Shown piece by piece: positions 1 through 18,010 of a DNA stretch of 46,053 nt. The position numbers and the translations under genes were made by a program. The notes under the pieces are model-generated. The model had not been told where the DNA came from, did no database searches, and saw only the letters and a list, made by a program, of their open reading frames with translations. Positions within the stretch are counted from its first letter, which is position 1, and every line of letters begins with the position of its first letter. Origin of the DNA: a virus; IMG/VR virus record IMGVR_UViG_3300010231_000013, positions 1 through 46,053 of that record. One strand, given 5' to 3'.

Positions 1-55
1 ATGCGGCGGACCGTGCGGCGGACCGTGCGGCGGACCGTGCGGCGGACTCTGCGGC
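1..55. repeat. Terminal direct overlap, identical to 45999..46053 (also present at 773..827)
   Basis: String comparison by eye: at + gcggcggaccgt x3 + gcggcggactct + gcggc occurs at both window ends. Confidence 0.95.
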
Positions 56-700
56 GTACTCTGCGGCGGACCATGCGGCGGACTCTGCGGCGTACTCTGC
101 GGCGGACTCTGCGGCGTACTCTGCGGCGGACCATGCGGCGGACTCTGCGGCGTACCGTGCGGCGGACCCTGCGGCGGACCGTGCGGCGGACCATGCGGCG
201 GACCATGCGGCGGACCCTGCGGCGGACCACAGTCCATCGCTAACGTCCTCGCCGTTCCCGGCCCTGACGTGCAGGTCGATGACGTGCTGAACGACTTCCT
301 GCGCCGACCCAGCCTTCACGTAGGAAACGCGGAGAATGGCGGCATGTACGCGGTGGAGCGCGGCCTGCCAGTCGTAATCATCGGGGAGGCCGGCAAGCGT
401 CTCGGCAAGCTGGACATGCCACTTGGCGCTCTCGCCGTTCGGCAGGCCCTCGAAAACGGTATCCTGTAACAGCGCCAGCCATTCTGGGTAGCCGTAGTGT
501 TCGGCTACGATCTCATGCTTGTTTCCAAGCGCTCCGATCTCTTCGGCATCCATGTCGGGCCGGATATGATGGATATGACAACCTACGCTACAGCCCTTGA
601 AGCCGTCATCGTCATCGCCATAGGTTCCCTTGAGCAGCATGTCCGCTGCGAAGTGGGCGCGGGACTGTTCAAGCAGTTCGGTTTTCTGTTCAGGCGTCAT
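1..700 (-). CDS. Repeat-tailed protein copy A, N-terminal part of a wrap-around gene. ATG at 700; continues 46053 -> 45901. 265 aa once the 55-bp overlap is removed.
   Basis: Nt 260-700 are identical to 948-1388 (copy B), so the same start context caggcgtcat applies. 645 + 153 nt = 798 nt = 266 codons, in frame across the junction. Confidence 0.75.
   Translation of the reverse strand, partial: MTPEQKTELLEQSRAHFAADMLLKGTYGDDDDGFKGCSVGCHIHHIRPDMDAEEIGALGNKHEIVAEHYGYPEWLALLQDTVFEGLPNGESAKWHVQLAETLAGLPDDYDWQAALHRVHAAILRVSYVKAGSAQEVVQHVIDLHVRAGNGEDVSDGLWSAAGSAAWSAAWSAARSAAGSAARYAAESAAWSAAEYAAESAAEYAAESAAWSAAEYAAESAARSAARSAARSAA
3..230 (-). repeat. 12-bp tandem repeat array A, 19 units in this part. 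With 45953..46000 the circularised array has 23 units.
   Basis: Units are gcggcggaccgt, gcggcggactct, gcggcgtactct, gcggcggaccat, gcggcgtaccgt, gcggcggaccct. Head-to-tail, no spacers, in frame with the minus-strand gene. Confidence 0.95.
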
Positions 701-722
701 GTTCTCGTCCTCGTTGTGTGGT

Positions 723-1388
723 TCAGGCGGCGCGCGTCAAAGCAGCGAGAACGCCGTCACGAATTTCCTGGAATGCGGCGGACCGTGCGGCGGACCGTGC
801 GGCGGACCGTGCGGCGGACTCTGCGGCGTACTCTGCGGCGGACCATGCGGCGGACTCTGCGGCGTACCGTGCGGCGGACTCTGCGGCGGACCGTGCGGCG
901 GACCGTGCGGCGGACCACAGTTCATCGCTAACGTTCTCGCCATTCCCGGCCCTGACGTGCAGGTCGATGACGTGCTGAACGACTTCCTGCGCCGACCCAG
1001 CCTTCACGTAGGAAACGCGGAGAATGGCGGCATGTACGCGGTGGAGCGCGGCCTGCCAGTCGTAATCATCGGGGAGGCCGGCAAGCGTCTCGGCAAGCTG
1101 GACATGCCACTTGGCGCTCTCGCCGTTCGGCAGGCCCTCGAAAACGGTATCCTGTAACAGCGCCAGCCATTCTGGGTAGCCGTAGTGTTCGGCTACGATC
1201 TCATGCTTGTTTCCAAGCGCTCCGATCTCTTCGGCATCCATGTCGGGCCGGATATGATGGATATGACAACCTACGCTACAGCCCTTGAAGCCGTCATCGT
1301 CATCGCCATAGGTTCCCTTGAGCAGCATGTCCGCTGCGAAGTGGGCGCGGGACTGTTCAAGCAGTTCGGTTTTCTGTTCAGGCGTCAT
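723..1388 (-). CDS. Repeat-tailed protein copy B (221 aa). An N-domain of about 165 aa is followed by 12 tetrapeptide repeats (WSAA RSAA ESAA RYAA EYAA...) and the tail FQEIRDGVLAALTRAA.
   Basis: Track ORF. GAGGA-type RBS in cgaggacgagaac upstream of the ATG. Tight spacing within the minus-strand operon. Confidence 0.8.
   Translation of the reverse strand: MTPEQKTELLEQSRAHFAADMLLKGTYGDDDDGFKGCSVGCHIHHIRPDMDAEEIGALGNKHEIVAEHYGYPEWLALLQDTVFEGLPNGESAKWHVQLAETLAGLPDDYDWQAALHRVHAAILRVSYVKAGSAQEVVQHVIDLHVRAGNGENVSDELWSAARSAARSAAESAARYAAESAAWSAAEYAAESAARSAARSAARSAAFQEIRDGVLAALTRAA
775..918 (-). repeat. 12-bp tandem repeat array B, 12 units
   Basis: Same unit family as array A. The first five units are identical to units 1-5 of array A. 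Confidence 0.95.
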
Positions 1389-1424
1389 GTTCTCGTCCTC
1401 GATTTGAAAAGGGGTCAGCGCACC

Positions 1425-1748
1425 TCAAAGGACGCGGCTGTGATAGTCCCGGAGAAGATCGTCCGGGTGCGGAATGCCGCGCGCGTCGTCTTCATCTTCG
1501 GGCTCGCAGGGCATGGCCTGCAACTGCTCGTAGTGATCGCGGCAGATGCGTTCGACCTCGGCTGTGTTCCAGCACTTGCGAAGGCCCTTTTCGGGGAGCG
1601 AGACGTAGTACTCCGCGCCATCCTGTGAGCCGCCGTAGGAGGCGTTCTCGTTCAGCCAGAGCGTGAAGTAGGTGTAGGGGCCGCTCTCGCGACGTTCCCA
1701 AAGCGGGTAGGTGATGGCGGGGAGGGCTTTCACTGCGAGGGAGGTCAT
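1425..1748 (-). CDS. Hypothetical protein (107 aa), early-left operon
   Basis: Track ORF with plausible composition. The stop lies 3 nt from the upstream gene. Confidence 0.6.
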   Translation of the reverse strand: MTSLAVKALPAITYPLWERRESGPYTYFTLWLNENASYGGSQDGAEYYVSLPEKGLRKCWNTAEVERICRDHYEQLQAMPCEPEDEDDARGIPHPDDLLRDYHSRVL

Positions 1749-1750
1749 GG

Positions 1751-1951
1751 TTAGGCCTCCGCTATCCGGTAAGCGATGATGCTCGTGTCTCGCCCTTTTC
1801 GATAAATCCAGTTCGGGGCGATTTCTCCGGCCGGGCCAGCGATAACGCTTTCAACGCCGTCCTTGAACCGAACGTGTACAATGGCATCGGGGTCGCCTTC
1901 CCAAGGGCCCCCATCCCAGTCGATCCACTCGGAGAATTTCTGAACGATCAT
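1751..1951 (-). CDS. Hypothetical protein (66 aa)
   Basis: Track ORF, tightly packed in the minus-strand operon. Confidence 0.6.
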   Translation of the reverse strand: MIVQKFSEWIDWDGGPWEGDPDAIVHVRFKDGVESVIAGPAGEIAPNWIYRKGRDTSIIAYRIAEA

Positions 1952-1954
1952 CGA

Positions 1955-2125
1955 TCAGGCCTCCGAGCGGATAATGAACTGCTTGTTGACAAGCACCCGG
2001 CGCGCCTTGGCCTTATCGGCGTAGCCGCCCTTGACGCGCTTGACCTCGACGCAGTCGAACTGAGCGCCGAAGTCGGCAATGACGCGGAAAATCTGGTTTG
2101 CGGTGTTTTCGATGAACTTCGGCAT
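1955..2125 (-). CDS. Hypothetical protein (56 aa, MPKFIENTANQIF...), first gene of the leftward operon
   Basis: Internal ATG at 2125 preceded by GGGAGCAAAGAAG. The longer 117-aa track ORF would run through the operator region into the repressor gene. Confidence 0.55.
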   Translation of the reverse strand: MPKFIENTANQIFRVIADFGAQFDCVEVKRVKGGYADKAKARRVLVNKQFIIRSEA

Positions 2126-2143
2126 CTTCTTTGCTCCCAAGTT

Positions 2144-2160
2144 CGGGAGACTGTCTCCCG
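2144..2160. promoter_or_regulatory. Perfect 17-nt palindrome CGGGAGAC-T-GTCTCCCG in the leader of the leftward operon
   Basis: Read directly. Lies between the putative leftward promoter/operator and the first leftward gene. Confidence 0.5.
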
Positions 2161-2210
2161 TTGTCTTTCGCCCTGGCCGGTGCCAGTGGGTGGCTGATGG
2201 GGAGACTATG

Positions 2211-2245
2211 ACAAATAAATTTGTGGTGCGCAACAAAAAAATTTG
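2211..2245. promoter_or_regulatory. Left operator region: perfect ACAAATAAATTTGT (2211-2224) plus degenerate ACAAAAAAATTTGG (2232-2245)
   Basis: The same 14-bp palindrome (as reverse complement) occurs at 2901-2914 on the other side of the repressor gene. Confidence 0.6.
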
Positions 2246-2255
2246 GCGGCGACAA

Positions 2256-2843
2256 TTATCTTGGTCGAATCGACGTGACCTTCGCGGCCCACTCGACCTC
2301 GACGTCAAAATCCGGCGGTGCGTTGTAAGAGATCAGGTGGAAGTGACCGGGCTTGCTGCCCGCCATCAGTTTCTTGATGACGATTCTGCCGTCTGCGCGG
2401 CCGATGACGCATACACGCCCTAGCAAATCCGAAGTGACCGGCTGTCGCCTGTCGTCGTAGAAAACGGTATCGCCGTCTTCTATGCGCCCGCCCATGCTGT
2501 CACCGCGAATTTCAAGAGCGACGGTATGTTCCGTGCTCATTTCCGGTGCTTCTACTTGCCCAAGGTTTCCTTGCCCTTCGGAGAAGTCTACAGCCCCTGA
2601 GCCGGCTAAAGCAATCCCAACAATTGGGACCATGCCGGATTCACCTTTTATCCCGTCCAAAAGGAACTCAGGGTTAATGGACAGTGCCCGCGCAATGGCC
2701 GTGAGGTTCTGCGGCTTCTTGGTCTTGCCAGCCTCGATAGCCTGGATCGTCTGAGGCTTGATCCCCACGCGACGTGCCAGGTCCCCTTGAGACCAGCCCC
2801 GCGTTTCGCGCGCCTCTCTCAGTCGTTTTGCCAAGTCTGCCAT
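2256..2843 (-). CDS. CI-like repressor: XRE-type HTH plus S24 (LexA-like) autopeptidase domain, 195 aa from ATG 2843
   Basis: HTH GWSQGDLARRVGIKPQTIQAIEAG. Candidate Ala-Gly cleavage site ALAGSG. Catalytic GDSM and IKKL motifs. Divergent from the cro-like gene. No SD before either ATG, so possibly leaderless like lambda cI. Confidence 0.9.
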   Translation of the reverse strand: MADLAKRLREARETRGWSQGDLARRVGIKPQTIQAIEAGKTKKPQNLTAIARALSINPEFLLDGIKGESGMVPIVGIALAGSGAVDFSEGQGNLGQVEAPEMSTEHTVALEIRGDSMGGRIEDGDTVFYDDRRQPVTSDLLGRVCVIGRADGRIVIKKLMAGSKPGHFHLISYNAPPDFDVEVEWAAKVTSIRPR

Positions 2844-2880
2844 GTGGCAGAGTTTAAATTTTATGGGCCTCATCCGCGCG

Positions 2881-2914
2881 CCAAAGATATTTGTTGCATG
2901 ACAAATTTATTTGT
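2881..2914. promoter_or_regulatory. Right operator region: perfect ACAAATTTATTTGT (2901-2914) plus degenerate CCAAAGATATTTGT (2881-2894)
   Basis: Lies in the 85-bp divergent intergenic region between the repressor and the cro-like gene. Confidence 0.6.
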
Positions 2915-2928
2915 GGCATGACGGGAGC

Positions 2929-3177
2929 ATGGAACAGCCCACGACACCTCTTGAGCGCGCCATCAAACATTGCGGCAGCATCGCAGAATTGGCGAGGCGC
3001 ATAGACCGATCCCCGCAGCTCGTCGGGTATTGGCGCAATGCGGTCAAAGGCGTCCCGGCCGAGGAAGCTCCGCGCATCGAAGCCGCCGTCGATGGCGCTG
3101 TTACGAGGCAGGAGCTTTGCCCCAACGTCTTTGGGTCGCCCACCACCCAACCCGCACAGGAAGGGCAGGCGGCATAG
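2929..3177 (+). CDS. Cro/YdaS-like small HTH regulator
   Basis: CGSIAELARRIDRSPQLVGYWRN HTH. Position divergent from the repressor. Start uncertain (ATG 2929 with very short SD spacing, or TTG 2911). Confidence 0.75.
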   Translation: MEQPTTPLERAIKHCGSIAELARRIDRSPQLVGYWRNAVKGVPAEEAPRIEAAVDGAVTRQELCPNVFGSPTTQPAQEGQAA

Positions 3178-3179
3178 CC

Positions 3180-3461
3180 ATGAGCGAGACAGGCGACAAT
3201 ACCGGCGCAAACCAGCTTCGCGCCTTGGTCGAGCGGATCGAACGGATCGAGGAAGAAATCGCCGATCTGAACCGCGACAAGTCCGAAATCTACAAGGAAG
3301 CCAAGAGCGGCGGGTTCAACGTCAAGGTGCTGCGCAAGGTGATCGCCGCGCGCCGGCAGGACGCCAGCGAACGGCAGGAAACCGAAGCCATTTTCGATCT
3401 CTACTGGGGAGCGATCCATGGCGACGCTCACGTGCGTGCACGCGAGGGGATTCCATCATGA
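3180..3461 (+). CDS. GapR-like DNA-binding protein (DUF2312 / UPF0335 family), 93 aa
   Basis: QLRALVERIERIEEEIADLNRDKSEIYKEAKSGGFNVKVLRKVIAARRQDASERQETEAIFDLY closely parallels Caulobacter GapR as recalled. Confidence 0.85.
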   Translation: MSETGDNTGANQLRALVERIERIEEEIADLNRDKSEIYKEAKSGGFNVKVLRKVIAARRQDASERQETEAIFDLYWGAIHGDAHVRAREGIPS

Positions 3462-3874
3462 CTGGGCGCCTTGAGGAAATCCGCAACGAAGCAATCGAGC
3501 AGGAAGCCTATTGGCGCGCCCGGCGTGTAGGTTACCTCCGCATCGGCCTTGAAGAAGCCCGCGATGCGGGAATGACCGTTGCCAAAGCGGCGGCATATCT
3601 CGGCATTACACAAAACGCCCTGTACGCTGCTTGCTACCGGCATCGCATAAAACTGGCGAAGGCGTCTCGTCCTCGGCGCGCTTCGAGCCTTGTCGATCAC
3701 AGCATTGCTTGTTCGGCCCCCGCCAATATCGAAATCCGGGAAACCATTCGTGATACCGCGCTCGCCAATCGCGGGAAGGCCACCGCTGCCGAAATCGCGG
3801 CGGCCATAGGCGTCACTCGCAATGCAATCATCGGGCATTGGTTTCGCGCTCGGAAGGAAGGGGCTTCCGCATGA
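3458..3874 (+). CDS. Two-HTH protein with a GcrA-like C-terminal HTH (138 aa)
   Basis: ATAAEIAAAIGVTRNAIIGHWFR matches the GcrA N-terminal signature SASQIAAxLGGVSRNAVIGKVHR. ATGA overlap with the upstream stop. Confidence 0.7.
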   Translation: MTGRLEEIRNEAIEQEAYWRARRVGYLRIGLEEARDAGMTVAKAAAYLGITQNALYAACYRHRIKLAKASRPRRASSLVDHSIACSAPANIEIRETIRDTALANRGKATAAEIAAAIGVTRNAIIGHWFRARKEGASA

Positions 3875-4065
3875 GCGCCCTCTCCGACCCCAACGCCTCC
3901 CGCAAGCTAAAGCCGTCCGCTCGAAGCCTGTTCCTCCTGGGAATGGACACGGTTGAAATAGCCGAGCGTCTTGGCGTTTTGGAAGCCGTCGCATCTCGTT
4001 TCATCTTCGTCGCCCGGTGCCGTGAGAAGGGACTGCCCGCGATCGTCGAAAGGCGTCCGTCATGA
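3871..4065 (+). CDS. Hypothetical small protein (64 aa), possible HTH
   Basis: GGAAGGAAGGGG RBS. ATGA overlap with the upstream gene. Confidence 0.6.
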   Translation: MSALSDPNASRKLKPSARSLFLLGMDTVEIAERLGVLEAVASRFIFVARCREKGLPAIVERRPS

Positions 4066-4145
4066 GCGACCCCATCACCATCATCGACGTGATCCTCTGG
4101 ACCATGCTCGGCCTTGCCGTGTGGAAGGCGGGGAGGGCGATATGA
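4062..4145 (+). CDS. Candidate 27-aa transmembrane micropeptide (MSDPITIIDVILWTMLGLAVWKAGRAI)
   Basis: Below the track cut-off. ATGA overlaps at both ends fill an otherwise 77-nt gap. Single hydrophobic helix. Confidence 0.35.
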   Translation: MSDPITIIDVILWTMLGLAVWKAGRAI

Positions 4146-4783
4146 TCGCGGCTCTCTTCGTGCAAACCGGTGGGTGCTACTATGGCATCGATGGCGTTGA
4201 CCCGTGGGACGAAGCCAGAGACGCGCGGCTTTATGACGGGCCTTGGCCTGTCGTCGCGCATCCTCCCTGCCAGCGATGGGGGAAGCTTTGGGCCGGACAG
4301 CCGCTGTTCATCAAACGCACTGGAATCCGCAAGACCAAGGGTGATGATGGCGGTTGTTTTGAGGCGGCGCTGGCTGCGGTCCGTCGATACGGCGGTGTTA
4401 TCGAGCATCCGTGGGGCAGTCATGCCTGGGCGCATTTCGGCATAAACAGGCCACCGCGTTCTGGTGGGTGGGTTTGTGCTGACTTTCATGGCGGCTGGAC
4501 CTGTTGCGTTGAGCAGGGACGTTACGGGCACTATGCACGCAAGCCCACGCTTCTTCTGGCCTATCATTGCGATCTGCCGGAACTGGACTGGGGCATCGGC
4601 GCATCGCGTCTTGATCCCGCCATCATCGAGCGAATGGGCCTTGAGCGCGCCAAACGGCTGGGCGAGGTCGGCGGTCGCGGCGGTGGCAAGGACAGTGCAC
4701 CTCGCATCGGTACTCCGATACCGTTCCGCGATCTCCTGATTTCCATCGCGTCCACCGCGATCAGACAGCGGGTGGCGGCATGA
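4142..4783 (+). CDS. Minimal C5 cytosine-methyltransferase-like protein (213 aa) with no obvious target-recognition domain
   Basis: LFVQTGGCY (motif I-like), HPPCQRWG (motif IV PCQ), VIEHPWG (motif VI-like), IGTPIPFRDLL (motif X-like). GGGGAGGG RBS. Function uncertain. Confidence 0.6.
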   Translation: MIAALFVQTGGCYYGIDGVDPWDEARDARLYDGPWPVVAHPPCQRWGKLWAGQPLFIKRTGIRKTKGDDGGCFEAALAAVRRYGGVIEHPWGSHAWAHFGINRPPRSGGWVCADFHGGWTCCVEQGRYGHYARKPTLLLAYHCDLPELDWGIGASRLDPAIIERMGLERAKRLGEVGGRGGGKDSAPRIGTPIPFRDLLISIASTAIRQRVAA

Positions 4784-5313
4784 CCTCACACACGAATTGC
4801 CCGGACGGGCAGGGGGACGACTTCGCCCGTCCGGGCTACAGCGGGTCGAGGACGCCCGCTTGTCCGCAATCTGAAAACGATGAGCGTCGAACCGCGTTCA
4901 CAACGTCCACCCGGACCGTGTTCGTCGCGATCTGCTCCAGCAATGGCGTCATCGTCAGAGCCCGAGGTGTTGCTGGCCCTCCATTGAGAACGCATGAAAC
5001 TGGACTGAAAATCCTCGGGCTCGCATTCCGTCCCGCGCGTACTCCCCGCGCGGTTCGCGTCGGAGGCTTGGGCAGACTCCTCCCCTGCCTGGGCTTCCGA
5101 CGCCCCAATTCTGTCGGGCCGTTTAAGGCCGCCCGACGCCTTTTTCTGTCGCTGCTCGTCAAGCCTGCGAAGCAACCGAGCGGCGGCTTCTCCAAGTGTT
5201 TCCGGTCCTTTGCTGGTGCGCTGTTCCATGCCCGAAACAAGAGCATGGAGCTGCGAGCATGGCGTACCGAGAAACTGAGTCTTTCAAGCAGAAATCGGGG
5301 CATGAGTACATGA
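4780..5313 (+). CDS. Doubtful ORF (177 aa, Arg/Ser/Pro/Gly/Cys-rich), coding status unresolved
   Basis: For: ATGA overlaps at both ends and an open frame. Against: wrong-frame-like composition, strong internal hairpins, and position-specific GC at 4841-4960 that fits the minus strand better. Confidence 0.3.
   Translation: MTSHTNCPDGQGDDFARPGYSGSRTPACPQSENDERRTAFTTSTRTVFVAICSSNGVIVRARGVAGPPLRTHETGLKILGLAFRPARTPRAVRVGGLGRLLPCLGFRRPNSVGPFKAARRLFLSLLVKPAKQPSGGFSKCFRSFAGALFHARNKSMELRAWRTEKLSLSSRNRGMST
4799..4836. other. Perfect 12-bp inverted repeat gcccggacgggc / gcccgtccgggc with a 14-nt loop
   Basis: Read directly. Starts 16 nt after the stop of the preceding gene. No U-tract follows. Confidence 0.6.
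5113..5145 (+). terminator. Terminator-like hairpin gtcgggc-N11-gcccgac followed by gccTTTTT
   Basis: Read directly. Lies inside the doubtful ORF 4780..5313. Confidence 0.3.
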
Positions 5314-5669
5314 GTTCCTCCGAGGTTGCCGGCGATTACGTCCGGCGAATGATTGAACACGAGACGAAGGGCTGGGGCGATCAGCAGAACGCCCTTGCCA
5401 GATTGGAGGCCCGCTACGGGCTCCCTTTTTGGTCCCTCACCAATCTCAAATCAGGCCGCGCAAAGACGGTCGAGGCCGGGCTCTTTGCCCGCATCAGGGC
5501 GGCTTATTTGGACCTGTGCCAGCGCCAGGTCAGCAAGCTCCAGCACGAAATCGCTATCGAGAAGGCCCTGACCGACGATGACAATCTTGCAGATTTGGAG
5601 AGCGAGGCTCGCCGTCTTGCGGCGCGGATTGCGCAGACGCGGGCGAAACGCATGGTTGGCCGCCGTTGA
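5310..5669 (+). CDS. Hypothetical protein (119 aa, MSSSEVAGDYVRRMIEHE...)
   Basis: Protein-like composition from this ATG onward. An alternative start at 5259 has GGAG 8 nt upstream. Confidence 0.7.
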   Translation: MSSSEVAGDYVRRMIEHETKGWGDQQNALARLEARYGLPFWSLTNLKSGRAKTVEAGLFARIRAAYLDLCQRQVSKLQHEIAIEKALTDDDNLADLESEARRLAARIAQTRAKRMVGRR

Positions 5670-5690
5670 GCGGCTGAGAAGGAGGACGTG

Positions 5691-5807
5691 ATGGAGCTTC
5701 TGTTTACCATTGGGGTTGTCGTCGGCTGTTTTATCGGCGGATTTGCTGCCGTCGTCCTGTTGAGGTTGGCCATTCAATACGCCGTCATGCGCGGCTTGGG
5801 GTGGTAA
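5691..5807 (+). CDS. 38-aa membrane peptide (MELLFTIGVVVGCFIGGFAAVVLLRLAIQYAVMRGLGW)
   Basis: Below the track cut-off. Near-consensus RBS AAGGAGGA 5 nt upstream. Fills the gap between genes. Confidence 0.6.
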   Translation: MELLFTIGVVVGCFIGGFAAVVLLRLAIQYAVMRGLGW

Positions 5808-5809
5808 CC

Positions 5810-6142
5810 ATGAACGCCATCCCCGACGCCGACGACTTCGAACTGACGCTGGAGCTTCCCAAGCTTCAAGGCTTGGACATGCGCGGCGACTTCCTCCGCG
5901 CCGAAGTCTCCTATCTCCACAACCGCATTGCCGAGATCAAGCGCCAGGAAAAGGCGGAAAGGGCGAGGCTGGCACAGGAGCGCGCCGACGAACGCCGTCG
6001 CCATGCCGAGACGATGAAAGAGCTTGGCGAGGATGAGGCTGACTACCGCCGCCGCGTCAAGCTCGCCATCGCCGAAGCCGAAGCCGTCATTGCTTCGGAC
6101 ATGGCCGCGTTGAAGCCCATTTCCCTCGCGCTTGCGGAGTAG
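5810..6142 (+). CDS. Hypothetical coiled-coil protein (110 aa)
   Basis: Track ORF trimmed to its ATG. Charged helical composition. Confidence 0.7.
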   Translation: MNAIPDADDFELTLELPKLQGLDMRGDFLRAEVSYLHNRIAEIKRQEKAERARLAQERADERRRHAETMKELGEDEADYRRRVKLAIAEAEAVIASDMAALKPISLALAE

Positions 6143-6147
6143 GTACC

Positions 6148-6345
6148 ATGCCTCGCGATCATCTCACCACGGACCTCAATGCAGCCCTCGACCTCGAGGA
6201 GCATGACTTCGCGGACGATCTGCGGGGCGTGGACATACCGGCATCACGGCTGGGCATCGTCCTTGTCTGGGGCTTCGTCGCCATCATGAGCATCCTGATC
6301 TGGATTGCTCTTGCTGCTGCGCTCGTACGGCTGGCGGGGCGGTGA
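6148..6345 (+). CDS. Small membrane protein (65 aa) with a C-terminal TM helix
   Basis: Track ORF. Hydrophobic stretch GIVLVWGFVAIMSILIWIALAAALV. Confidence 0.65.
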   Translation: MPRDHLTTDLNAALDLEEHDFADDLRGVDIPASRLGIVLVWGFVAIMSILIWIALAAALVRLAGR

Positions 6346-7181
6346 TGGAACCTACAAGGCCTGTTCTGCGATGGCATGGTGGGAAATGGCTTCTGGCCCC
6401 CTGGATCATCAGCCACTTCCCCAAACATCGCGTCTATGTTGAGCCATTTGGCGGGGCAGGGTCTGTCCTGATGCGCAAAGACCCCGCATACGCCGAAATT
6501 TGGAATGACCTAGACGGGGAGGTCGTCAATCTATTTCGTGTGCTTCGCTCCGAACTGGGGCCTGAGCTTGTAAGGCTACTCACACTCACGCCATTTTCGC
6601 GGCAAGAGTTCATTGAAGCCTATGAGGCATCTGCCGAGCCAATCGAACGGGCGCGCAGGCTGGTCATCAGATCCTTTATGGGGTTCGGATCAAATGGCCA
6701 CAATCGGGTCACAGGATTCCGAGCCAACAGCAATCGTTCCGGAACAACGCCGGCGCATGATTGGCGAAATTATCCAGACAGCCTTGCCACTGTCGTTGAA
6801 CGAATCTCGCGCGTGACGATCGAAAGCAAGGATGCAAAGGCTGTCATGGCTCAACATGACTGCCCTGACACGCTGCATTACGTTGACCCGCCTTACGTAT
6901 TTTCGACCCGCGCCGACCTGTCAAAAGACTATGCACACGAACTAACAGACGACGACCATGCCGCGCTTCTCGTCTTTCTTCGGGGGCTTGAGGGTATGGT
7001 CGTGCTGTCCGGCTATCCGACTGATCTATACGATCATGCGCTGCATGATTGGCAGCGGGTCGAGCGCGAAGCATTGGCGGATGGTGCCTCTAAGAGAACT
7101 GAGGTCCTCTGGATAAATCCTCTTTGCGCCGCTCGGCTTGAGGCGGAACGGCTTCCTCTATTCGGTGGGGAGTCCGCCTGA
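6345..7181 (+). CDS. N6-adenine DNA methyltransferase, D12 (Dam-like) class
   Basis: LRWHGGKWLLAPWI, EPFGGAGSV (AdoMet site) and VDPPY catalytic motif. TGATG overlap with the upstream stop. Confidence 0.9.
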   Translation: MEPTRPVLRWHGGKWLLAPWIISHFPKHRVYVEPFGGAGSVLMRKDPAYAEIWNDLDGEVVNLFRVLRSELGPELVRLLTLTPFSRQEFIEAYEASAEPIERARRLVIRSFMGFGSNGHNRVTGFRANSNRSGTTPAHDWRNYPDSLATVVERISRVTIESKDAKAVMAQHDCPDTLHYVDPPYVFSTRADLSKDYAHELTDDDHAALLVFLRGLEGMVVLSGYPTDLYDHALHDWQRVEREALADGASKRTEVLWINPLCAARLEAERLPLFGGESA

Positions 7182-7537
7182 TGGCCACCAGCATGTCCAT
7201 CGAACTGCCATGGCCGGCGAAGCCGCTGCATCCGAACGCGCGCCCGCATCACATGGTCAAATGGAACGCCACCAAGAAGGCAAGAGCAGACGCCTACATT
7301 CTCGCAAAGCGCATCGGCAAGATAGACGCTGAGGCCATCAAAGTCACGTGCATCTTCTTCCCGCCTCTGGTGAAGCGCTACCGCGACCTCGATAACATGA
7401 ACGCCGCTTGCAAGGCGTATCTCGACGGCATCGCAGACGCCATCGGCATCAACGACAAGTGCTTCCTTCCCCAAGCTCCTGCGTGGGGCATCCCCGTCAA
7501 GGGCGGCAAGGTCCGTATCGTGCTGGAGGCTGCATGA
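7181..7537 (+). CDS. rusA: RusA-family Holliday junction resolvase
   Basis: LPWPAKP, RYRDLDNMNAACKAYLDGI and KGGKVRIVL parallel E. coli RusA motifs. Confidence 0.85.
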   Translation: MATSMSIELPWPAKPLHPNARPHHMVKWNATKKARADAYILAKRIGKIDAEAIKVTCIFFPPLVKRYRDLDNMNAACKAYLDGIADAIGINDKCFLPQAPAWGIPVKGGKVRIVLEAA

Positions 7538-8346
7538 GCAACCGAGCATGGATGCCGCTCCACATCGATGATTATATCCGCGACACGGATCATCTGAACG
7601 CGTCAGAGCATGGTGCTTATCTTCTTCTCATCATGAAATACTGGCGCGACGGCGGCCTTCCTTCGGATGAAGGGTTGATCCGGCGTTACGCGAAACTCTC
7701 TCCCGATCAGTGGGCCGAAAGCCGGGATGTCATCGCCGCTTTTTTCGAAGAGGGGTGGCACCACAAACGCATCGACGCCGAACTCGCAAAGGCTGATGAG
7801 ATCATCGAAAAACGGCGACTAGCAGCGAAAGAACGGCATTCTAATAGCAAGAGCAATGCAAGTGCAGAGCAAGTGCATAGCACTTCCCCAAGCAAATGCA
7901 CTGATACGGGCGTGCCACCTGTAACCAGTAACTTTTCAGAACCTAGCGGTTCTGACGCGGCTCCGCCGGTCGATCCTCGACAACAGCTTTGGTCGGAAGG
8001 TGTTTCCATCCTCAAAGCCATCAGCGGCAAGACAGACGGCGCCGCCCGGCAGCTTATCGGCATGTGGTCCAAGGCCACCAAGGACGATTGCGCGGCCATC
8101 ATGGCGAAAATAACGACGGCGCAGAGGGAGCGCATTGGCGACCCGGTGTCGTGGATCACGGCTGCGCTCAAACCCCCCGACAAACCGCCCAAGAAGGCAA
8201 CCCAAGCCAGCATTTGGACAGACGAGGCCATAGCCTACGGAATTATCGATGAACCAGATAGCACACAGGATCGACGTTTGGGCTCTCGCCTCGCAAGAGG
8301 ACAAGATCAAAGCCCTGGTTTCGCTCGGCGGATTGCCGGCTCGTGA
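7534..8346 (+). CDS. DUF1376 (YdaU-like) replication-associated protein
   Basis: The N-terminus WMPLHIDDYIRDTDHLNASEHGAYLLLIMKYW is typical of the family. ATGA overlap upstream. The last 98 nt overlap the next gene and lose the coding GC3 signal. Confidence 0.75.
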   Translation: MSNRAWMPLHIDDYIRDTDHLNASEHGAYLLLIMKYWRDGGLPSDEGLIRRYAKLSPDQWAESRDVIAAFFEEGWHHKRIDAELAKADEIIEKRRLAAKERHSNSKSNASAEQVHSTSPSKCTDTGVPPVTSNFSEPSGSDAAPPVDPRQQLWSEGVSILKAISGKTDGAARQLIGMWSKATKDDCAAIMAKITTAQRERIGDPVSWITAALKPPDKPPKKATQASIWTDEAIAYGIIDEPDSTQDRRLGSRLARGQDQSPGFARRIAGS

Positions 8347-8782
8347 GTCCGTCAACCAGCAAATCGACAAGGCGTCGTACTACATCGCCCTTGAGGGTGT
8401 GACGCGCTACGGGCTTGCCGAAGCCGTCCGGTCGATACTCAAGGGCGGCCTGTCACACGCCTTTTTCCCAAGCCCGCCAGAGCTTCGCATCCAGTGCGAC
8501 AAGGCCATGGAGTGGCACGAGCGGCAGCGTGAGCGCGAATTTCGCGAGCAACGCTATCTCCGGGAGCGCCAAGAGAACAATAGGATCACCACGCGCACCC
8601 CGGAAGCCATTGCACGGCAACAGGCGGCCTATCGCAAGTTCCTTGCTGGATACCAGGCGGAGAAGCAATCGGGGGAAGAACTGGAGCGTGCCGAAACCCG
8701 CGCTCGCTACGGCATGACAGACGAGGCTATCGCCGGCGTTCCGGATCAACCCATCCCGTCAAATTTCAAGAGGATCGCTTGA
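8249..8782 (+). CDS. Hypothetical protein (177 aa), replication module
   Basis: High GC3 from its ATG onward. Protein-like composition. Confidence 0.7.
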   Translation: MNQIAHRIDVWALASQEDKIKALVSLGGLPARESVNQQIDKASYYIALEGVTRYGLAEAVRSILKGGLSHAFFPSPPELRIQCDKAMEWHERQREREFREQRYLRERQENNRITTRTPEAIARQQAAYRKFLAGYQAEKQSGEELERAETRARYGMTDEAIAGVPDQPIPSNFKRIA

Positions 8783-8784
8783 GC

Positions 8785-9366
8785 ATGACCGACATGGATA
8801 TCTCCGATCGACCGATTGGGTATAACCCCGATTTTCTGCGGTCTGTGTACGCCAAGCGCAGGGACGACGAGCGCAGGATGAGGGAGCTAGAGCGCCGTGA
8901 GGAGCTCCTCCGCGAACGGGAGGCGATGCTGGCAGCAAAACAGCGTCATGTCCTTGCCGAGAGCGCAGCCCTCATAGCGCGCCGCAGGGAAGCCAACGAC
9001 GCCATGGCCAAGGCCAACGATGCCCTGCGGAAGCTTCGCGCCGAGACGGATAAGGTTCAGGTTCGGCGCGTCCCGGTCAAGACCATCTTGCGCCGCATCT
9101 CTCTCGCCACCGGCATCAAGCCCTATGAAATCATGGGCAGCAGCCGATCCCGTCATGTCGTGTTTGCGCGGCAGGCGGTTATGTACTGGGCCGTGCGTCT
9201 CAGTGGTCGTTCGCTGCCGGAAATAGGCCGCGCTCTAGGCGGCAGGGATCACACGTCAATCATTCACGGATCGCTGGCCTATCCGGCAAAGCGTGCTGCT
9301 CAAGGCAGGACGTTGCGGGTCATTCGGCGCGGCGGCAATCACCCCGGAAAGGACATCACCCCATGA
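8785..9366 (+). CDS. Protein with a DnaA domain IV-like C-terminal HTH; putative replication initiation or regulation
   Basis: RSRHVVFARQAVMYWAVRLSGRSLPEIGRALGGRDHTSIIHG matches the Bac_DnaA_C signature. ATG 8785 chosen over TTG 8779. Confidence 0.8.
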   Translation: MTDMDISDRPIGYNPDFLRSVYAKRRDDERRMRELERREELLREREAMLAAKQRHVLAESAALIARRREANDAMAKANDALRKLRAETDKVQVRRVPVKTILRRISLATGIKPYEIMGSSRSRHVVFARQAVMYWAVRLSGRSLPEIGRALGGRDHTSIIHGSLAYPAKRAAQGRTLRVIRRGGNHPGKDITP

Positions 9367-9596
9367 CCATCCCACAAGCGATCATGGACGAGGCGCGGAA
9401 GCTTATGGAGCACCCACTTGCTCGTCCGTATCGCAGTAAGGCATTTGCAATGGAAATTGCTCTCGCCTTATCGGACGCAGAACACCGCGGCGCGGAAAGG
9501 GAGCGGGAGCGCGCGGCCAAGATTGCGGAATCGAATGACGCTTTCCCTTCCGAAGGAGAGCACATCGCCGCCGCCATCCGCAACACCAAGGACTAG
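9363..9596 (+). CDS. Hypothetical protein (77 aa)
   Basis: Track ORF. ATGA-type overlap with the upstream gene. Confidence 0.65.
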   Translation: MTIPQAIMDEARKLMEHPLARPYRSKAFAMEIALALSDAEHRGAERERERAAKIAESNDAFPSEGEHIAAAIRNTKD

Positions 9597-9604
9597 GGGA
9601 CAGC

Positions 9605-10168
9605 ATGGCGAAGGCGGGGCGCAAGCCGAAAGTGGCGGCATATCGAGAGCCGAACGGGCGCATATCCAGGGCGCGCGAACCAATTGACAAGATAGCATTG
9701 GAGGCGAGAGCAAAAATGCTCGGCATCACAATGCTGGACGCGAAGAACCAGCTCGCCTCAACCTTCATCGGCAGGCTGCACATGCAGTATCAGGCATGGG
9801 AGAAGCGCGGCCCGCGCGACCAGCGCCGCCCGGCAGAATGTCTTGACCGACGCGAGTATGCCGCTGCCACGCGGTTTCTCGAACTGCACAACGACCGCCT
9901 CAAGGTGGTGCAGGCCGAGGGTGCGCAGTACGATCACAGGCCCGGCGGCAATGCCGACATCGAAGCTGTCGAGGAGTGGGCGCGTCAGGTGAACGAAAGC
10001 TACCGCGAGGCTCGCAAGGCCATCCAAGAAGCACAGAACGAAAACAGGTCCGAGAACCTGTGGGCTGCGCTGGACTATTGCATCCTCCGCGACCAGCCGT
10101 TCAGCCATCTAGTCGGAAGCCTGCGCATCCTGTGCAATGCACTGGCGAGACATTGGAAGGTGGCTTGA
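9605..10168 (+). CDS. Hypothetical protein (187 aa). Last gene of the early-right operon, so positionally a candidate late-gene regulator.
   Basis: Track ORF. Followed by a strong terminator and a structured intergenic region. Confidence 0.7.
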   Translation: MAKAGRKPKVAAYREPNGRISRAREPIDKIALEARAKMLGITMLDAKNQLASTFIGRLHMQYQAWEKRGPRDQRRPAECLDRREYAAATRFLELHNDRLKVVQAEGAQYDHRPGGNADIEAVEEWARQVNESYREARKAIQEAQNENRSENLWAALDYCILRDQPFSHLVGSLRILCNALARHWKVA

Positions 10169-10228
10169 CGAGGCAAGGCAAATCATGCATTTCTGACATT
10201 GCTGGTCACAGTCGGAACTGTGTCCAGC

Positions 10229-10270
10229 GAAAGGCCGCCGAGTTGATAGCTCGAGCGGCCTTTCTTCATT
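10229..10270 (+). terminator. Rho-independent terminator at the end of the early-right operon
   Basis: Perfect 10-bp stem gaaaggccgc / gcggcctttc with a 16-nt loop, followed by a T-rich tail ttcatt. Confidence 0.6.
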
Positions 10271-10345
10271 CCAACCGCTTAGGACGGTCCCTTAGGTATC
10301 ACAATCCAGCAAGGATGATACCTGGCTATCGAGATGCGAGGCGGC

Positions 10346-10585
10346 ATGCAGGCAATCGTCACATACATGCCGTGGCTGCTTTCTGCGATCACGATCTACA
10401 TGACGATCATGGCGGGCAACAAGGCTCGCTACGCATGGTTGATCGGCCTAGGCAATCAGGCGCTTTGGCTGACGTGGATTTGCGCGGCCGGGGCGTGGGG
10501 CCTGCTGCCGATGAATATTGCCCTTTGGGCTGTATATGCCCGCAATCATTTAAAATGGGCGGAAGCGAACAAGGGTTTCCAGTAG
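10346..10585 (+). CDS. Small 3-TM membrane protein (79 aa)
   Basis: Three hydrophobic segments. GAGG 4 nt upstream of ATG 10346. Confidence 0.65.
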   Translation: MQAIVTYMPWLLSAITIYMTIMAGNKARYAWLIGLGNQALWLTWICAAGAWGLLPMNIALWAVYARNHLKWAEANKGFQ

Positions 10586-10713
10586 CGCCAGCCAAACGAG
10601 TAACCCCGAAAGACCCACAGGCATTCGTGCCGGTTGAAGCTCTTAGGGCTGGTTCCGCCTCGCACCCTTCCACCGCATAAGGACTGACAGCATGGCAACC
10701 GCGCGCGAAGGCA

Positions 10714-10872
10714 ATGGCGGGTAACGCCAAGTACGTCGCCCGCGAAACTCGGAGCGGCTGGGAGGTAGTGCTGTTAGGCGAAGTGATGACAGTGCACGTT
10801 TGCATCGCCCTCAACGGCTTTGTCGCCGCGCAAACCGCGCAAGCGCTGAATGAACTTCGCAATGGCGGCTAA
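10714..10872 (+). CDS. Candidate small protein (52 aa)
   Basis: Below the track cut-off. GC3 about 73 percent. Poor RBS. Overlaps the next small ORF by 11 nt. Confidence 0.3.
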   Translation: MAGNAKYVARETRSGWEVVLLGEVMTVHVCIALNGFVAAQTAQALNELRNGG

Positions 10873-10972
10873 GCTCCTTGCCCTGGCCTTTCTCATGGCC
10901 TTGTCCTCCTGCCTCTCCGATCCCAACCCCTGCACCATGCATGAGTGGCTGAGTAACCCGAGGTGCCGTTGA
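10862..10972 (+). CDS. Candidate 36-aa lipoprotein (MAAKLLALAFLMALSSC-LSDPNPCTMHEWLSNPRCR)
   Basis: Signal peptide plus lipobox LSSC. GC3 about 80 percent. Coupled to both neighbours. Confidence 0.5.
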   Translation: MAAKLLALAFLMALSSCLSDPNPCTMHEWLSNPRCR

Positions 10973-11142
10973 TGGACCCCAACACGGAAGCCTCTCTCAT
11001 CATCGAAGCCCTGACACAGTTCGCCTCCCGCCATGGCATCGACTGCATGCTCGACCTCATCGAAGGCGTTCATCAGGCATACGAGGCTTTCGGCTCCGAT
11101 GACCGCGAAGGCGCAGAGATAGAACTGGTGACGGTGCAGTGA
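10972..11142 (+). CDS. Candidate acidic small protein (56 aa)
   Basis: TGATG overlap with the lipoprotein ORF. GC3 about 75 percent. The antisense track ORF 10774..11172 looks spurious. Confidence 0.5.
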   Translation: MDPNTEASLIIEALTQFASRHGIDCMLDLIEGVHQAYEAFGSDDREGAEIELVTVQ

Positions 11143-11170
11143 GTGCTGCAACCCAAGAAAGGAACTAACC

Positions 11171-11410
11171 ATGGCCGAACGTTACGCAACGATCCTTGTC
11201 GAGGAAGACGGCACCGAAGTCGTGTCCAACATCGCGATCATCGAAGGCAAGCCTAACAGCCTGCCGAAAGGCTACAAGCGTGAGACCGTTCCGGCGGGCG
11301 TCAAGATCGGCATGGTACGTGGTGGAGCGGGAGAACAGGCCGGCGGCTTCGGCTTCCCGTCAATAGACGCAACCACGACACAGAAGCAGTCCGACAAGGG
11401 CGCGAAGTAA
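11171..11410 (+). CDS. Hypothetical protein (79 aa)
   Basis: Track ORF with an AAAGGA RBS. Confidence 0.65.
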   Translation: MAERYATILVEEDGTEVVSNIAIIEGKPNSLPKGYKRETVPAGVKIGMVRGGAGEQAGGFGFPSIDATTTQKQSDKGAK

Positions 11411-11435
11411 GCGCTGAGAGCAGCGAGGCAACAGC

Positions 11436-11765
11436 ATGGTAGGCCGTCCATTCCAGAAAGGGCAGTCGGGCAACCCCGGCGGCAGGCCAAAGGGCATCGC
11501 AGCCAAGGCTCGCGAATACGGAGACAAGGCGCTCCAGGTGCTTGTCGATGCGCTGGACGATGAAAACCCGAAGGTGCGCTTGACGGCTGCCAGCGAGATC
11601 ATCGATCGCGGCTACGGCAAGGCTTTGACCATGACGGCTGACCTGACAAACAAGATCGAGGATTTCGATGACGAATCTCTCGATGCTGCCATCGCTTTCC
11701 TCAAGTCAAATATCGGCACTGCTGATCAGGCTGGAGAGGGAGAGACAGCGCCGACATCTCACTAA
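11436..11765 (+). CDS. Putative terminase small subunit (DUF5681-like)
   Basis: The N-terminal FQKGQSGNPGGRPKG motif is typical of this small-terminase-associated family. Lies directly upstream of TerL. Confidence 0.65.
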   Translation: MVGRPFQKGQSGNPGGRPKGIAAKAREYGDKALQVLVDALDDENPKVRLTAASEIIDRGYGKALTMTADLTNKIEDFDDESLDAAIAFLKSNIGTADQAGEGETAPTSH

Positions 11766-13107
11766 CCGGCTCAAGTCCTACAAGCCGTACGCCAAGCAGG
11801 CATCGTTTCACGCCGCAGGGGCCAAATATCGCGAGCGGCTTCTCAGGGCAGGCAACCAGCTCGGCAAGACATACTGCGGAGCCTATGAACTGGCGATCCA
11901 TCTGACGGGTCGCTATCCTGTATGGTGGGAAGGACGGCGCTGGGATCGCGGCGTGTCATGGTGGGCAGGCGGCAAGGACAGCATATCCGTCCGCGATTCC
12001 GTCGCGCAACTGTTGCTAGGGCCGCCCTCTGATCGTGGCACGGGGACAATACCCAAGGCGGCCATCGTTGACATCTCGCCATCGCGCGGCGTCGCTGACG
12101 GCGTGGACAGCGTGACGGTCCAGCATGAAAGCGGCGATCAAAGCCGGCTGGTGTTCAAGACTTATGACCAGGGCCGCGAACGATGGCAGGCGGCGACACT
12201 GGATGGCGTGTGGTTCGATGAGGAGCCGCCGGAAGATATTTACATGGAGGGACTGACCCGAACGAATGCCACGGGCGGCATGACGTTCATGACGTTCACC
12301 CCATTGCTCGGCATGTCGAACGTGGTGAGGCGGTTCTTGACGGAAAACTCCCCCGATCGCCACGACACGAACATGACGATAGAGGACGCGGAGCATATCC
12401 CGCCGGAGGAACGGGCGCGGATCATCGCGAGCTACCCTCCGCATGAACGAGAGGCCCGCACCAAAGGCGTGCCGATCCTTGGCTCCGGCCGCATCTTCCC
12501 GGTGGCCGAAGCTGACATCTCGGTCGATGCGTTCAAGTTACCGAGGTTCTGGCCACAGATCGGCGCCATGGATTTCGGATGGGATCACCCGTTCGCTGCT
12601 GTCAGACTGTCCTATGACAGCGAAGGCGATGTGATCTACGTCACGCACTGCTTCCGGGCTCGCGAGCAAACGCCGCTCGATCACGTGCGCAATGTGAGGG
12701 CCTGGGGCGAATGGTTGCCGTGGGCATGGCCGCATGACGGATTGCAGCATTCGAAAGACAGCGGTGAGCCTCTGTCGAAGCAATATCGCGCGAACGGGCT
12801 GAACATGCTCGGCTCCCACGCGACGTTCCCGGATGGCTCTGTGGGTGTCGAGGCGGGCTTGTTCGACATGCTGGAGCGCATGCAGACGGGCCGGTTCAAG
12901 GTATTCAGCCATTTGAACGAATGGTTCGAGGAGTTTCGCCTTTACCATCGCAAGGACGGCAAGGTGGTGAAGGAAGGCGACGACCTCATGTCAGCCACGC
13001 GCTACGGCGTGATGATGCTGCGGCATTCCATCGTTAATCCTGCCGAGTTCAAGGCTGCGCGGCAGCAATCGACCCGCATGGCCGATCCGTTGGGAGATTA
13101 CCGATGA
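11668..13107 (+). CDS. terL: Terminase large subunit
   Basis: YKPYAKQASFHAAGAKYRERLLRAGNQLGKT (Walker A-like), VWFDEEP (Walker B-like) and a C-terminal nuclease-like region. GC3 supports a start at 11668, overlapping TerS by 98 nt. Confidence 0.9.
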   Translation: MTNLSMLPSLSSSQISALLIRLERERQRRHLTNRLKSYKPYAKQASFHAAGAKYRERLLRAGNQLGKTYCGAYELAIHLTGRYPVWWEGRRWDRGVSWWAGGKDSISVRDSVAQLLLGPPSDRGTGTIPKAAIVDISPSRGVADGVDSVTVQHESGDQSRLVFKTYDQGRERWQAATLDGVWFDEEPPEDIYMEGLTRTNATGGMTFMTFTPLLGMSNVVRRFLTENSPDRHDTNMTIEDAEHIPPEERARIIASYPPHEREARTKGVPILGSGRIFPVAEADISVDAFKLPRFWPQIGAMDFGWDHPFAAVRLSYDSEGDVIYVTHCFRAREQTPLDHVRNVRAWGEWLPWAWPHDGLQHSKDSGEPLSKQYRANGLNMLGSHATFPDGSVGVEAGLFDMLERMQTGRFKVFSHLNEWFEEFRLYHRKDGKVVKEGDDLMSATRYGVMMLRHSIVNPAEFKAARQQSTRMADPLGDYR

Positions 13108-13337
13108 AGGTTGACCGGTACAGGATTGGCATCGTGCACTCACAGGCATGGCATGTGCCCGCCGGCAGCACCGCATGCGTGGAAAGCACAGACGAATACT
13201 GGGCCAAGGCTTCTGAACTCGCCTCTGACGCCATGGGGCAAGCTGTGCGGTTTGAGCATCTGGAACTTGTTCTGGAGAGGGAGAACCCGGACGGCTCCTC
13301 CTATGTGAGGTCAAGGCGCAAGCTCGTCGCGGCATGA
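13104..13337 (+). CDS. Hypothetical protein (77 aa)
   Basis: Track ORF. ATGA overlap with TerL. Confidence 0.65.
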   Translation: MKVDRYRIGIVHSQAWHVPAGSTACVESTDEYWAKASELASDAMGQAVRFEHLELVLERENPDGSSYVRSRRKLVAA

Positions 13338-13813
13338 CAGTCCGCATCGCTGGCGGGAGCCTTCGCGATCTGACCTACATCCTTGGCAATCTTCGCCCTG
13401 CCGACCGCAACGAAATCGAATGCCAGATGGCCGAATGGGACGCGCCGCTGATTGCGCTGCGCTGCATGCAGGGCTTCGCCTATGTGGCGGAGTTGAACGG
13501 CAACCCGGAGGCTGCGTTCGGGGCGATCGAGCAAAGGCCGGGGCTTTGGGAGGCATGGTCCTGGGGCACGCGCAAGATGCCGCGCTGCATACCGGAGATC
13601 ACGCGCTTCTTCTTCGCCGTTCTAGGCCCTGACGTGGCTTCACGTGAAGCATGGCGGGTCGAGGCACGGCCAAGCGCCGACAACGATCTGGCGTCACGAT
13701 GGCTTCGTAAGCTCGGCGCCACGGAAAGATGCCGCCTGCCTCGCTTCGGCAAGAACGGCGAGGACTTCAAGCTGTTCGACTGGACAAGGGAAAGCTGGAA
13801 TGTGTTTCGTTAA
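13334..13813 (+). CDS. Hypothetical protein (159 aa)
   Basis: Track ORF. ATGA overlap upstream. Confidence 0.7.
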   Translation: MTVRIAGGSLRDLTYILGNLRPADRNEIECQMAEWDAPLIALRCMQGFAYVAELNGNPEAAFGAIEQRPGLWEAWSWGTRKMPRCIPEITRFFFAVLGPDVASREAWRVEARPSADNDLASRWLRKLGATERCRLPRFGKNGEDFKLFDWTRESWNVFR

Positions 13814-16372: not shown

Positions 16373-16428
16373 GACGCCCACGGCTGGCTTAGCCGGACAA
16401 TCCCTCCCAAGAATGAAGGAATACGACT

Positions 16429-17001: not shown

Positions 17002-17080
17002 TCGCGCCGCAATGGCGTGGTGAGGGGCCGGCGCTGCGGTAGCCGGTCCATCTATTCCAACCGCAAACCAGGAAAATCTC

Positions 17081-17980: not shown

Positions 17981-18010
17981 TCGCCGCCTTCCCAGAAAAG
18001 GTAGACGAAA

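Follow-up and report, generated by a model that had tools for sequence, protein, structure and literature searches.

What do two adjacent, nearly identical genes in the early region of a temperate phage encode, and how did they come to stand in tandem? The question is raised by the left end of IMG/VR virus record IMGVR_UViG_3300010231_000013, the whole of which, 46,053 nucleotides (nt) at 60.4% GC, was analysed and is here called the window. Its gene layout is of the temperate lambdoid type, and an earlier note, made from the letters of the sequence, had picked out the two minus-strand genes, here copies A and B, as candidates for an undescribed accessory function. We find that the genes form a real tandem array whose copies are mosaics produced by recombination. 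The best explanation overall, offered tentatively and at rather less than an even chance, is that an uncharacterised family of phage early genes, encoding a putative host-directed effector, is here arrayed in tandem. Alignments reveal three parts in these proteins: a head of ~150 amino acids (aa), a run of four-residue repeats (SAAx) forming an arm, and a conserved C-terminal helix. The features of the array are as follows, in window coordinates (the sister contig is introduced below).

723..1388, minus strand: copy B, a complete gene of 221 aa with a helical head, 11-12 SAAx units and a C-terminal helix ending ...ALTRAA
56..700, minus strand: 5' part of copy A, with the head and most of the repeat array; corresponds to copy 2 of the sister contig
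45901..46053, minus strand: 3' part of copy A, with the last repeat units, the C-terminal helix ending ...ALTPAA and the stop codon; corresponds to copy 3 of the sister contig
255..713, minus strand: first copy of an identical 459-nt tract comprising head codons 1-149 and 13 nt upstream of the ATG, including the ribosome-binding site (RBS)
943..1401, minus strand: second copy of the 459-nt tract
723-773, minus strand: tail b, the last 16 codons (FQEIRDGVLAALTRAA) and the stop codon
45901-45951, minus strand: tail a
707-713, minus strand: GTCCTCG heptamer (GAGGAC on the coding strand, the RBS) at the duplication junction
1395-1401 and 45886-45892: further GTCCTCG copies
2..228, minus strand: 12-nt tandem array of copy A, unit TCC GCC GCA NNG, continuing at 45951-46053
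774..916, minus strand: 12-nt tandem array of copy B, 11.9 units
1..55: terminal overlap of 55 nt used for circle closure, the same as 45999-46053; it lies inside the 12-nt array and also equals 773-827 in the copy B array

The adjacent paralogues described in the earlier note are genuine. The junction leading from tail b through the RBS to the next ATG is internal to the window contig and occurs twice in an independent sister contig, so that the tandem arrangement is not an artefact of the window assembly. When the tandem junction was searched for as an exact string, neither IMG/VR nor the JGI metagenome contigs yielded a match. Copy B has the extent and length given to it in that note and recurs unchanged as J1 of the sister contig, while the DNA identity of the heads, put at about 440 nt, runs to 459 nt, with three substitutions beside the tract (234/922, 247/935 and 254/942). 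The tails also differ as had been claimed: comparison of tail a with tail b over 17 codons shows eight differing sites, seven of them synonymous and one a Pro/Arg replacement (proportions of synonymous and non-synonymous sites differing, pS 0.47 and pN 0.026). With random placement, seven or more synonymous differences among eight would be expected with P = 7.7e-4, and the C-terminal tail is under purifying selection. Finally, the RBS-containing microhomology reported at the duplication junctions was recovered as the GTCCTCG heptamer, which starts at 707, 1395 and 45886 and precedes copy A, copy B and the next gene; a single illegitimate exchange between two RBS copies would explain the 688-nt duplicated unit.

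Copy A, which spans the two ends of the contig, reads through as the 265-aa frame claimed for it, but only once the 55-nt overlap has been removed, the naive join being out of frame. Both ends of the contig lie inside the array, and positions 1-95 are identical to 773-867 in the array of copy B, so that the repeat used to close the circle is present in more than one place. An exact look-up of the proteins of two flanking genes retrieved the sister contig (JGI 3300010384 Ga0136217_1000235; 47,032 nt), whose flanks are 99.6% identical to the window and whose terminal overlap, of 226 nt, likewise falls inside the array. Its linear sequence contains three heads (J1, J2 and J3), contradicting the earlier two-copy picture. 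J1 reproduces copy B exactly, J2 (269 aa) combines the head/array boundary seen in window copy A with tail b, and J3 (257 aa) ends in tail a but differs in its array. These copies are mosaics produced by recombination, with independent assortment of boundary type and tail type. The first 663 nt of window copy A match J2 and the last 154 nt match J3, the switch lying at 46036..56, exactly at the closure, and the circular lengths of window and sister are 808 nt apart, approximately one gene copy. Given the position of the switch and this difference in length, ~808 nt (one copy) was probably lost from the window, and copy A as it stands is most likely a closure-induced hybrid of two paralogues. 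Loss of a copy on closing the window seems to us about twice as probable as a true unequal-crossover deletion whose breakpoint coincided with the contig ends. The copy number is at least two and probably three.

The closure is not the only place where assembly may have left its mark. All three retained differences between the heads fall within one 55-mer of divergent array, which is the pattern expected had the assembler merged isolated variant bubbles, so that the 100% identity over 459 nt may be inflated. The earlier proposal of gene conversion or very recent duplication is plausible, and the mosaic copies of the sister contig fit it, but assembler consensus may account for part of the head identity on which it was based.

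Measured in 253 family sequences below 70% identity, seven head residues are nearly invariant:

H16: 99% conserved
D20: 94% conserved
C37: 97% conserved
C41: 99% conserved
H62: 96% conserved
D80: 97% conserved
E84: 97% conserved

These residues are conserved down to ~25% identity, and three of the conserved-residue pairs are placed at positions i and i+4 on helices. The head signature to which they belong (H16, D20, G-C37-x-x-G-C41, H62, P-E-W-L, D80-x-x-F-E84-G-L-P) is complete in both window copies. The near-invariance of these His, Asp, Cys and Glu residues, with their i, i+4 pairing, suggests that the head carries a putative metal site, possibly Cys2His2 zinc plus an acidic cluster. At the other end of the protein, the tail AAFQEIRDGVLAAL aligns with AAYQxIRDxxLxAL of relatives, and the conserved amphipathic C-terminal helix is present.

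Structure prediction, proposed in the earlier note as a check, gave confident AlphaFold models, with a predicted local distance difference test (pLDDT) of 92.6 for copy B (93-98 in the head, 92-94 in the C-terminal helix and 61-74 at the arm tip) and of 97.1 for the head alone. The models are almost entirely helical, with an all-alpha head. The arm is predicted to be a helical hairpin of variable length that returns the chain to the head, onto which, we infer, the C-terminal helix packs. Such docking of the tail helix would explain the purifying selection on the tail. No hydrophobic N-terminus was seen and the protein is presumably cytoplasmic. Known helical elements with which the arm may be compared are the Ala-rich antiparallel helical hairpins termed 'Alacoil' and the ER/K single alpha-helix spacers. 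Like these, the SAAx arm is predicted to be a long helical element, here a hairpin, built mainly of small residues, and its charged and aromatic residues at i and i+4 could form stabilising ladders in the same way; unlike them, it has a strict four-residue period with Trp, Arg or Glu as the fourth residue, and the tip of its hairpin is of low confidence.

The earlier note recognised no characterised family for the head, and Pfam, NCBIfam, PADLOC, PDB sequence and Foldseek searches bear this out. Neither Pfam nor NCBIfam gave a match for the two copies or the head, and the best hit of a sequence-profile search of the PDB had an E-value of 0.15. Foldseek against the PDB reached E-values no better than 1.9 for the full model (template modelling (TM) score <=0.26) and 4.2 for the head alone (TM <=0.25), and against BFVD it returned a single, uncharacterised family member. 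A Pfam scan of 121 members plus 20 divergent or Ala-rich ones yielded no consistent family, and a literature search on the repeat motif found nothing relevant. The only significant library matches were those of copy A to phrog_3416 (E = 4.6e-10) and phrog_8332 (E = 1.8e-7), phage protein clusters with no function assigned that probably hold the cultured-phage members KPhi1 gp60 and phiXaf18 gp37. The matches are restricted to the head end and arm (residues 135-225 and 197-261), and the head by itself matches no PHROG. By exclusion, then, this appears to be a new family, matching no known family or fold, whose function can be described as putative only.

Pfam matches to Acb3, FAM199X and Cse1 were judged to be composition noise. 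Acb3 is a phage inhibitor of the cyclases of the cyclic-oligonucleotide-based antiphage signalling system (CBASS; PF25187; bioRxiv 10.1101/2025.07.23.666291). It resembles the present family in being a phage protein of helical character, and three of the 121 members match its Pfam entry weakly (best E 0.018), but these matches are far below significance for 121 x 24,736 comparisons and 0 of 22 individually scanned proteins match.

The size and spread of the family were assessed in several databases. A word-indexed protein search produced 1,284 matches, and an exhaustive search 1,411 representative clusters at E<=1e-3, or 414 at E<=1e-10, the clusters being defined at 50% identity. There are 294 relatives on IMG/VR viral contigs and 50 loci in species-representative genomes, the latter in Rhizobiaceae (73% identity), Verrucomicrobiales, Saccharimonadales, Actinomycetota, Acidobacteriota, Chloroflexota and a Nitrosarchaeum metagenome-assembled genome (MAG). 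Among cultured phages only 13 Xanthomonas phage records carry a member (for example KPhi1 gp60 and phiXaf18 gp37, all hypothetical), and a further four occurrences are on megaplasmids, also as hypothetical proteins; indeed, members are annotated as hypothetical throughout. The family comes mostly from uncultured soil and water phages. Distant members (25-35% identity) are found on MAG contigs assigned to Nitrosarchaeum (L128) and to Saccharimonadales, Kaiserbacteria and Saccharibacteria (L093, L094 and L108). Such members binned with archaea and the candidate phyla radiation reflect either a very wide viral host range or the binning of viral contigs. In the longer members, inspected for fusions, the only addition was an uninformative N-terminal extension of Cys-rich or coiled-coil type.

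The setting of the gene is more uniform. Every neighbourhood inspected is a phage or prophage early region, and the gene's usual place in prophages has the repressor on one side and the recombination genes on the other. No conserved partner gene was found among the ~130 loci searched, in which recurrent neighbours were limited to ERF, YqaJ, repressors, HNH and integrase, and no toxin gene occurs in the neighbourhoods inspected. Window copies A and B follow this arrangement, in keeping with the early-left operon position assigned to them in the earlier note: they are genes 4 and 5 of a leftward early operon that starts after the CI/S24 repressor and a 2126-2255 spacer, with the genes for an ERF-type annealing protein and a YqaJ exonuclease further downstream.

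The repeat arms show a distinctive mode of evolution. Copy A has 22-23 SAAx units and copy B 11-12. In 245 proteins, the fourth residue of units followed by another Ser is Trp in 29%, Arg in 28% and Glu in 26.5% of cases. Each array uses a single codon for Ser and one or two for Ala throughout. Over 30 arrays, comprising 294 units, 0.3-5% of units deviate from the majority of their array at silent third positions, as against 53% and 34% at the first two bases of the fourth codon. Glu is always GAG, and Arg always AGG or CGG, even at 32-47% GC. From 32% to 67% GC, lineages differ in their Ser and Ala codons while the amino acids stay the same. The arms evolve in concert, and selection at the level of the protein maintains their composition with its Trp/Arg/Glu mixture. 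A DNA-level role for the 12-nt repeat was rejected, as lineages fix different Ser and Ala codons, and so was a contingency or hypermutable locus, since array lengths are the same in 13 pairs of near-identical phages.

The same arrays are awkward to assemble and to annotate. Of 166 family genes, 26 are cut short by the end of the public contig within the array, 0-90 residues past the head (loci L010, L015, L022-L024, L027, L035, L042, L043, L046, L052, L059, L064, L071, L080, L083, L084, L100, L111, L114, L120, L130, L137, L139, L146 and L149). This identifies the array as a systematic breakpoint of short-read assembly, and because arrays break or mis-close such assemblies, copy numbers in public phage contigs are unreliable. 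The 12-nt repeat also gives rise to long spurious open reading frames (ORFs), in the window at 1-243 (plus strand), 757-918 (minus strand) and elsewhere, with translations such as MRRTVRRTV... and PPHGPPHG..., and these are a risk for gene callers. In one database protein of 333 aa (P0217), SAAx repeats are followed by the VRRRVRR frame of the same repeat; whether sequencing error or real, this frameshift within the array shows how fragile such genes are in public data.

A survey of copy number, also proposed in the earlier note, found more than one copy in 7 of 80 viral loci but in none of 50 genome loci. No close relative of the window gene (62-78% identity) has more than one copy. The most extreme example is that of locus L044 (IMGVR_UViG_3300037422_000254), where ~11 tandem paralogues occupy ~2750-12216; their heads have a median identity of 77% and the remainder of 44%, their arms are Ala-rich (AAWAARAAA...), and several lack Cys37 or more of the head motif. 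In other tandem pairs the heads are 85-100% identical and divergence is greatest in the arm. Multi-copy loci arose independently in several clades, and conserved heads with diversified arms are a recurring pattern. There is a parallel in the 'genomic accordion' of poxvirus K3L reported by Elde et al. in 2012, in which a viral host-interaction gene is said to be tandemly amplified into near-identical copies that can afterwards diverge. Similarly, there are two to three copies with identical heads here and two to ~11 in other phages. The target (PKR) and selective agent are known for K3L, whereas the SAAx family is compared from gene copies alone.

A possible history of the array, and a possible role for its products, can be put together from these observations. 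Illegitimate recombination at the 7-nt RBS microhomology would have created the gene array, which would since have been reshuffled by unequal homologous exchange or gene conversion, keeping the heads identical and making mosaics of arms and tails. The product may be a cytoplasmic protein that acts early in lytic growth on a broadly conserved host target, in anti-defence or host takeover, with the arm as a variable binding or spacing element and gene amplification as an adaptive response. That the function is of this kind – a host-directed effector made early, whose arm is variable and whose gene is amplified under selection – is speculative, and we regard it as unlikely, if still the likeliest of the functions considered. 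A more ambitious version would make these proteins a new effector class, combining a metal-dependent head, of a fold unseen in solved structures, with an expandable tetrapeptide-repeat helical arm tuned by in-frame exchange of 12-nt units and by amplification (2 to ~11 copies), the arms race being with a widely conserved target in host defence or housekeeping; this is doubtful, and less probable than the first of the rival explanations below.

Several points weigh against a host-directed effector encoded by a tuned array. PADLOC-DB gave no match at E<=1 with either the full protein or the head. A set of seven near-invariant His, Asp, Cys and Glu residues would be more usual in an enzyme or at a structural metal site than in an inhibitor that evolves fast. 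That these residues cluster, and that the tail docks onto the head, is read only from sequence position and pLDDT. Near-identical phages have identical arrays, so that the arm is not hypervariable on short time scales, and it may be dispensable, as some members have an ordinary helical segment in place of the repeats. The window phage, moreover, could truly hold two copies as the result of a real unequal crossover. If the proteins are host-directed, they would be a large and phylogenetically broad addition to phage counter-measures, with ~1,400 clusters at 50% identity in many phyla. For all the very high confidence of its model, the head finds no match among solved structures, and the arms offer a clean natural case of concerted evolution joined to selection for heterogeneity, in genomes of 32-67% GC.

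The conserved residues of the head are the starting point of the best-placed rival, namely a metalloenzymatic head whose substrate is a nucleotide, a nucleic acid or another small conserved molecule; on this view the arm is no more than a scaffold, spacer or oligomerisation element, and duplication a matter of dosage. We consider this unlikely, ranking it just behind the effector function. Conservation of the seven residues at 94-99%, down to ~25% identity, is what an enzyme would lead one to expect, the spread over bacterial phyla and to a Nitrosarchaeum MAG contig argues for a universal substrate, and the neighbours include genes of DNA metabolism (ERF, Rad52, YqaJ, methyltransferases and VirE primase). 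However, the searches that were run detected no sequence or fold similarity to known enzymes, and the absence of Cys37 or more from several paralogues of the 11-copy array would be unusual under dosage selection. The maintained Trp/Arg/Glu composition, too, suggests that the arm is itself functional.

That composition bears equally on the proposal that replication slippage in a helical hairpin produced the arms as tolerated by-products, and that extra copies are neutral and transient, with nothing adaptive in length or copy number. The near-uniform silent positions (0.3-5% departures) do indicate rapid turnover by slippage or unequal exchange, some members manage without repeats, and the close relatives at 62-78% identity have one copy each. 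Yet variation is limited to bases one and two of the fourth codon (53% and 34%), and Trp, Arg and Glu make up 84% of units although Lys, Gln and Gly are equally reachable by mutation. The same amino-acid pattern is written with different codons from 32% to 67% GC, and multi-copy loci are independent in several clades. Neutrality of this kind seems improbable to us.

Genomic position is the main attraction of a third possibility, that of a recombination-module accessory such as an inhibitor of host RecBCD or AddAB, in a position analogous to that of lambda Gam or P22 Abc. In many loci annealing proteins (ERF, RecT or Rad52) and YqaJ exonucleases are indeed encoded a few genes downstream of it, and the family is acidic overall (median isoelectric point 5.5, net charge ~-8.5). 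The association is loose, however, with ERF within 3 kb of the family gene in 13 and YqaJ in 11 of ~130 loci. In phiXaf18 the gene adjoins a VirE-family primase gene, and the annotation shows neither an annealing protein nor an exonuclease within 4 kb of it. The Pfam and PDB searches revealed no likeness to Gam or Abc, and the arm is not a DNA charge mimic, that of copy B having a net positive charge. A recombination accessory is, on this evidence, quite improbable.

Imm5-like proteins are Ala-rich, and the earlier note had linked the present genes to them. The corresponding explanation is an Imm5-like immunity or superinfection-exclusion protein, with the tandem copies forming a small 'polyimmunity' locus. 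The likenesses are that the proteins are mostly alpha-helical (which is not discriminating) and Ala-rich, and that Imm5 and Imm5-like genes too may occur as tandem paralogues. Imm5 proteins of polymorphic-toxin systems and the toxin-free polyimmunity loci of bacterial chromosomes were described by Zhang et al. 2012 (PMC3482391), and tandem diverged paralogues, up to ~11 in this family, resemble such loci. The link did not survive the searches: Imm5 and Imm5-like (PF14423 and PF21805) gave no match at E<=1 with copies A and B and 20 further members, Ala-rich paralogues included, and none at E<=0.1 among the 121 members, making ~140 scanned in all. Neither DYW-deaminase nor CdiA-CT toxins are neighbours, and no toxin gene of any sort was seen in any neighbourhood. 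The window and prophage loci place the gene in an early operon with recombination genes and with no recognisable promoter of its own, and the cultured carriers are a single Xanthomonas phage group with the gene beside a primase gene. We consider a polyimmunity locus very improbable. Finally, that the whole duplication is an assembly artefact of a single true copy, as might be feared from a contig that ends inside a repeat and from the 26 of 166 family genes that run off a contig end inside the array, is scarcely credible given a junction internal to the window and present twice in a 99.6%-identical independent contig with three heads in its linear sequence, and given also the existence of two distinct tails and two distinct head/array boundary sequences.

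The remaining landmarks of the window complete its temperate layout.

2256-2873, minus strand: CI-like repressor (HTH_3 and Peptidase_S24), by family match
43551-44339, minus strand: ERF-type single-strand annealing protein, farther down the early-left operon
42393-43067: YqaJ-like exonuclease
36815-37816: integrase

HNH genes lie near the ERF and YqaJ-like exonuclease genes, and the plus strand carries replication and structural genes after the repressor. A promoter and terminator scan gave no minus-strand signal near the tandem genes. The spacer at 2126-2255 is a candidate operator/promoter region: it separates the repressor gene from the first gene of the early-left operon and has an A/T-rich segment bearing the near-palindrome TTTGTGGTGCGCAACAAA. 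A small early ORF at 44547-44771 (minus strand) encodes a Cys- and Asp-rich peptide (…CNACGNLCCGSDMFEGCGCDGCEEPECWSDDW…) with no match in Pfam or PHROG. Finally, positions 36761-36827 (plus strand), overlapping the end of the integrase gene at 36815, produce a borderline Rfam match to transfer RNA (tRNA) of 29.1 bits against a gathering score of 29 (E = 0.04). ARAGORN detects no tRNA there, and the segment may be a tRNA-derived attP core beside the integrase.

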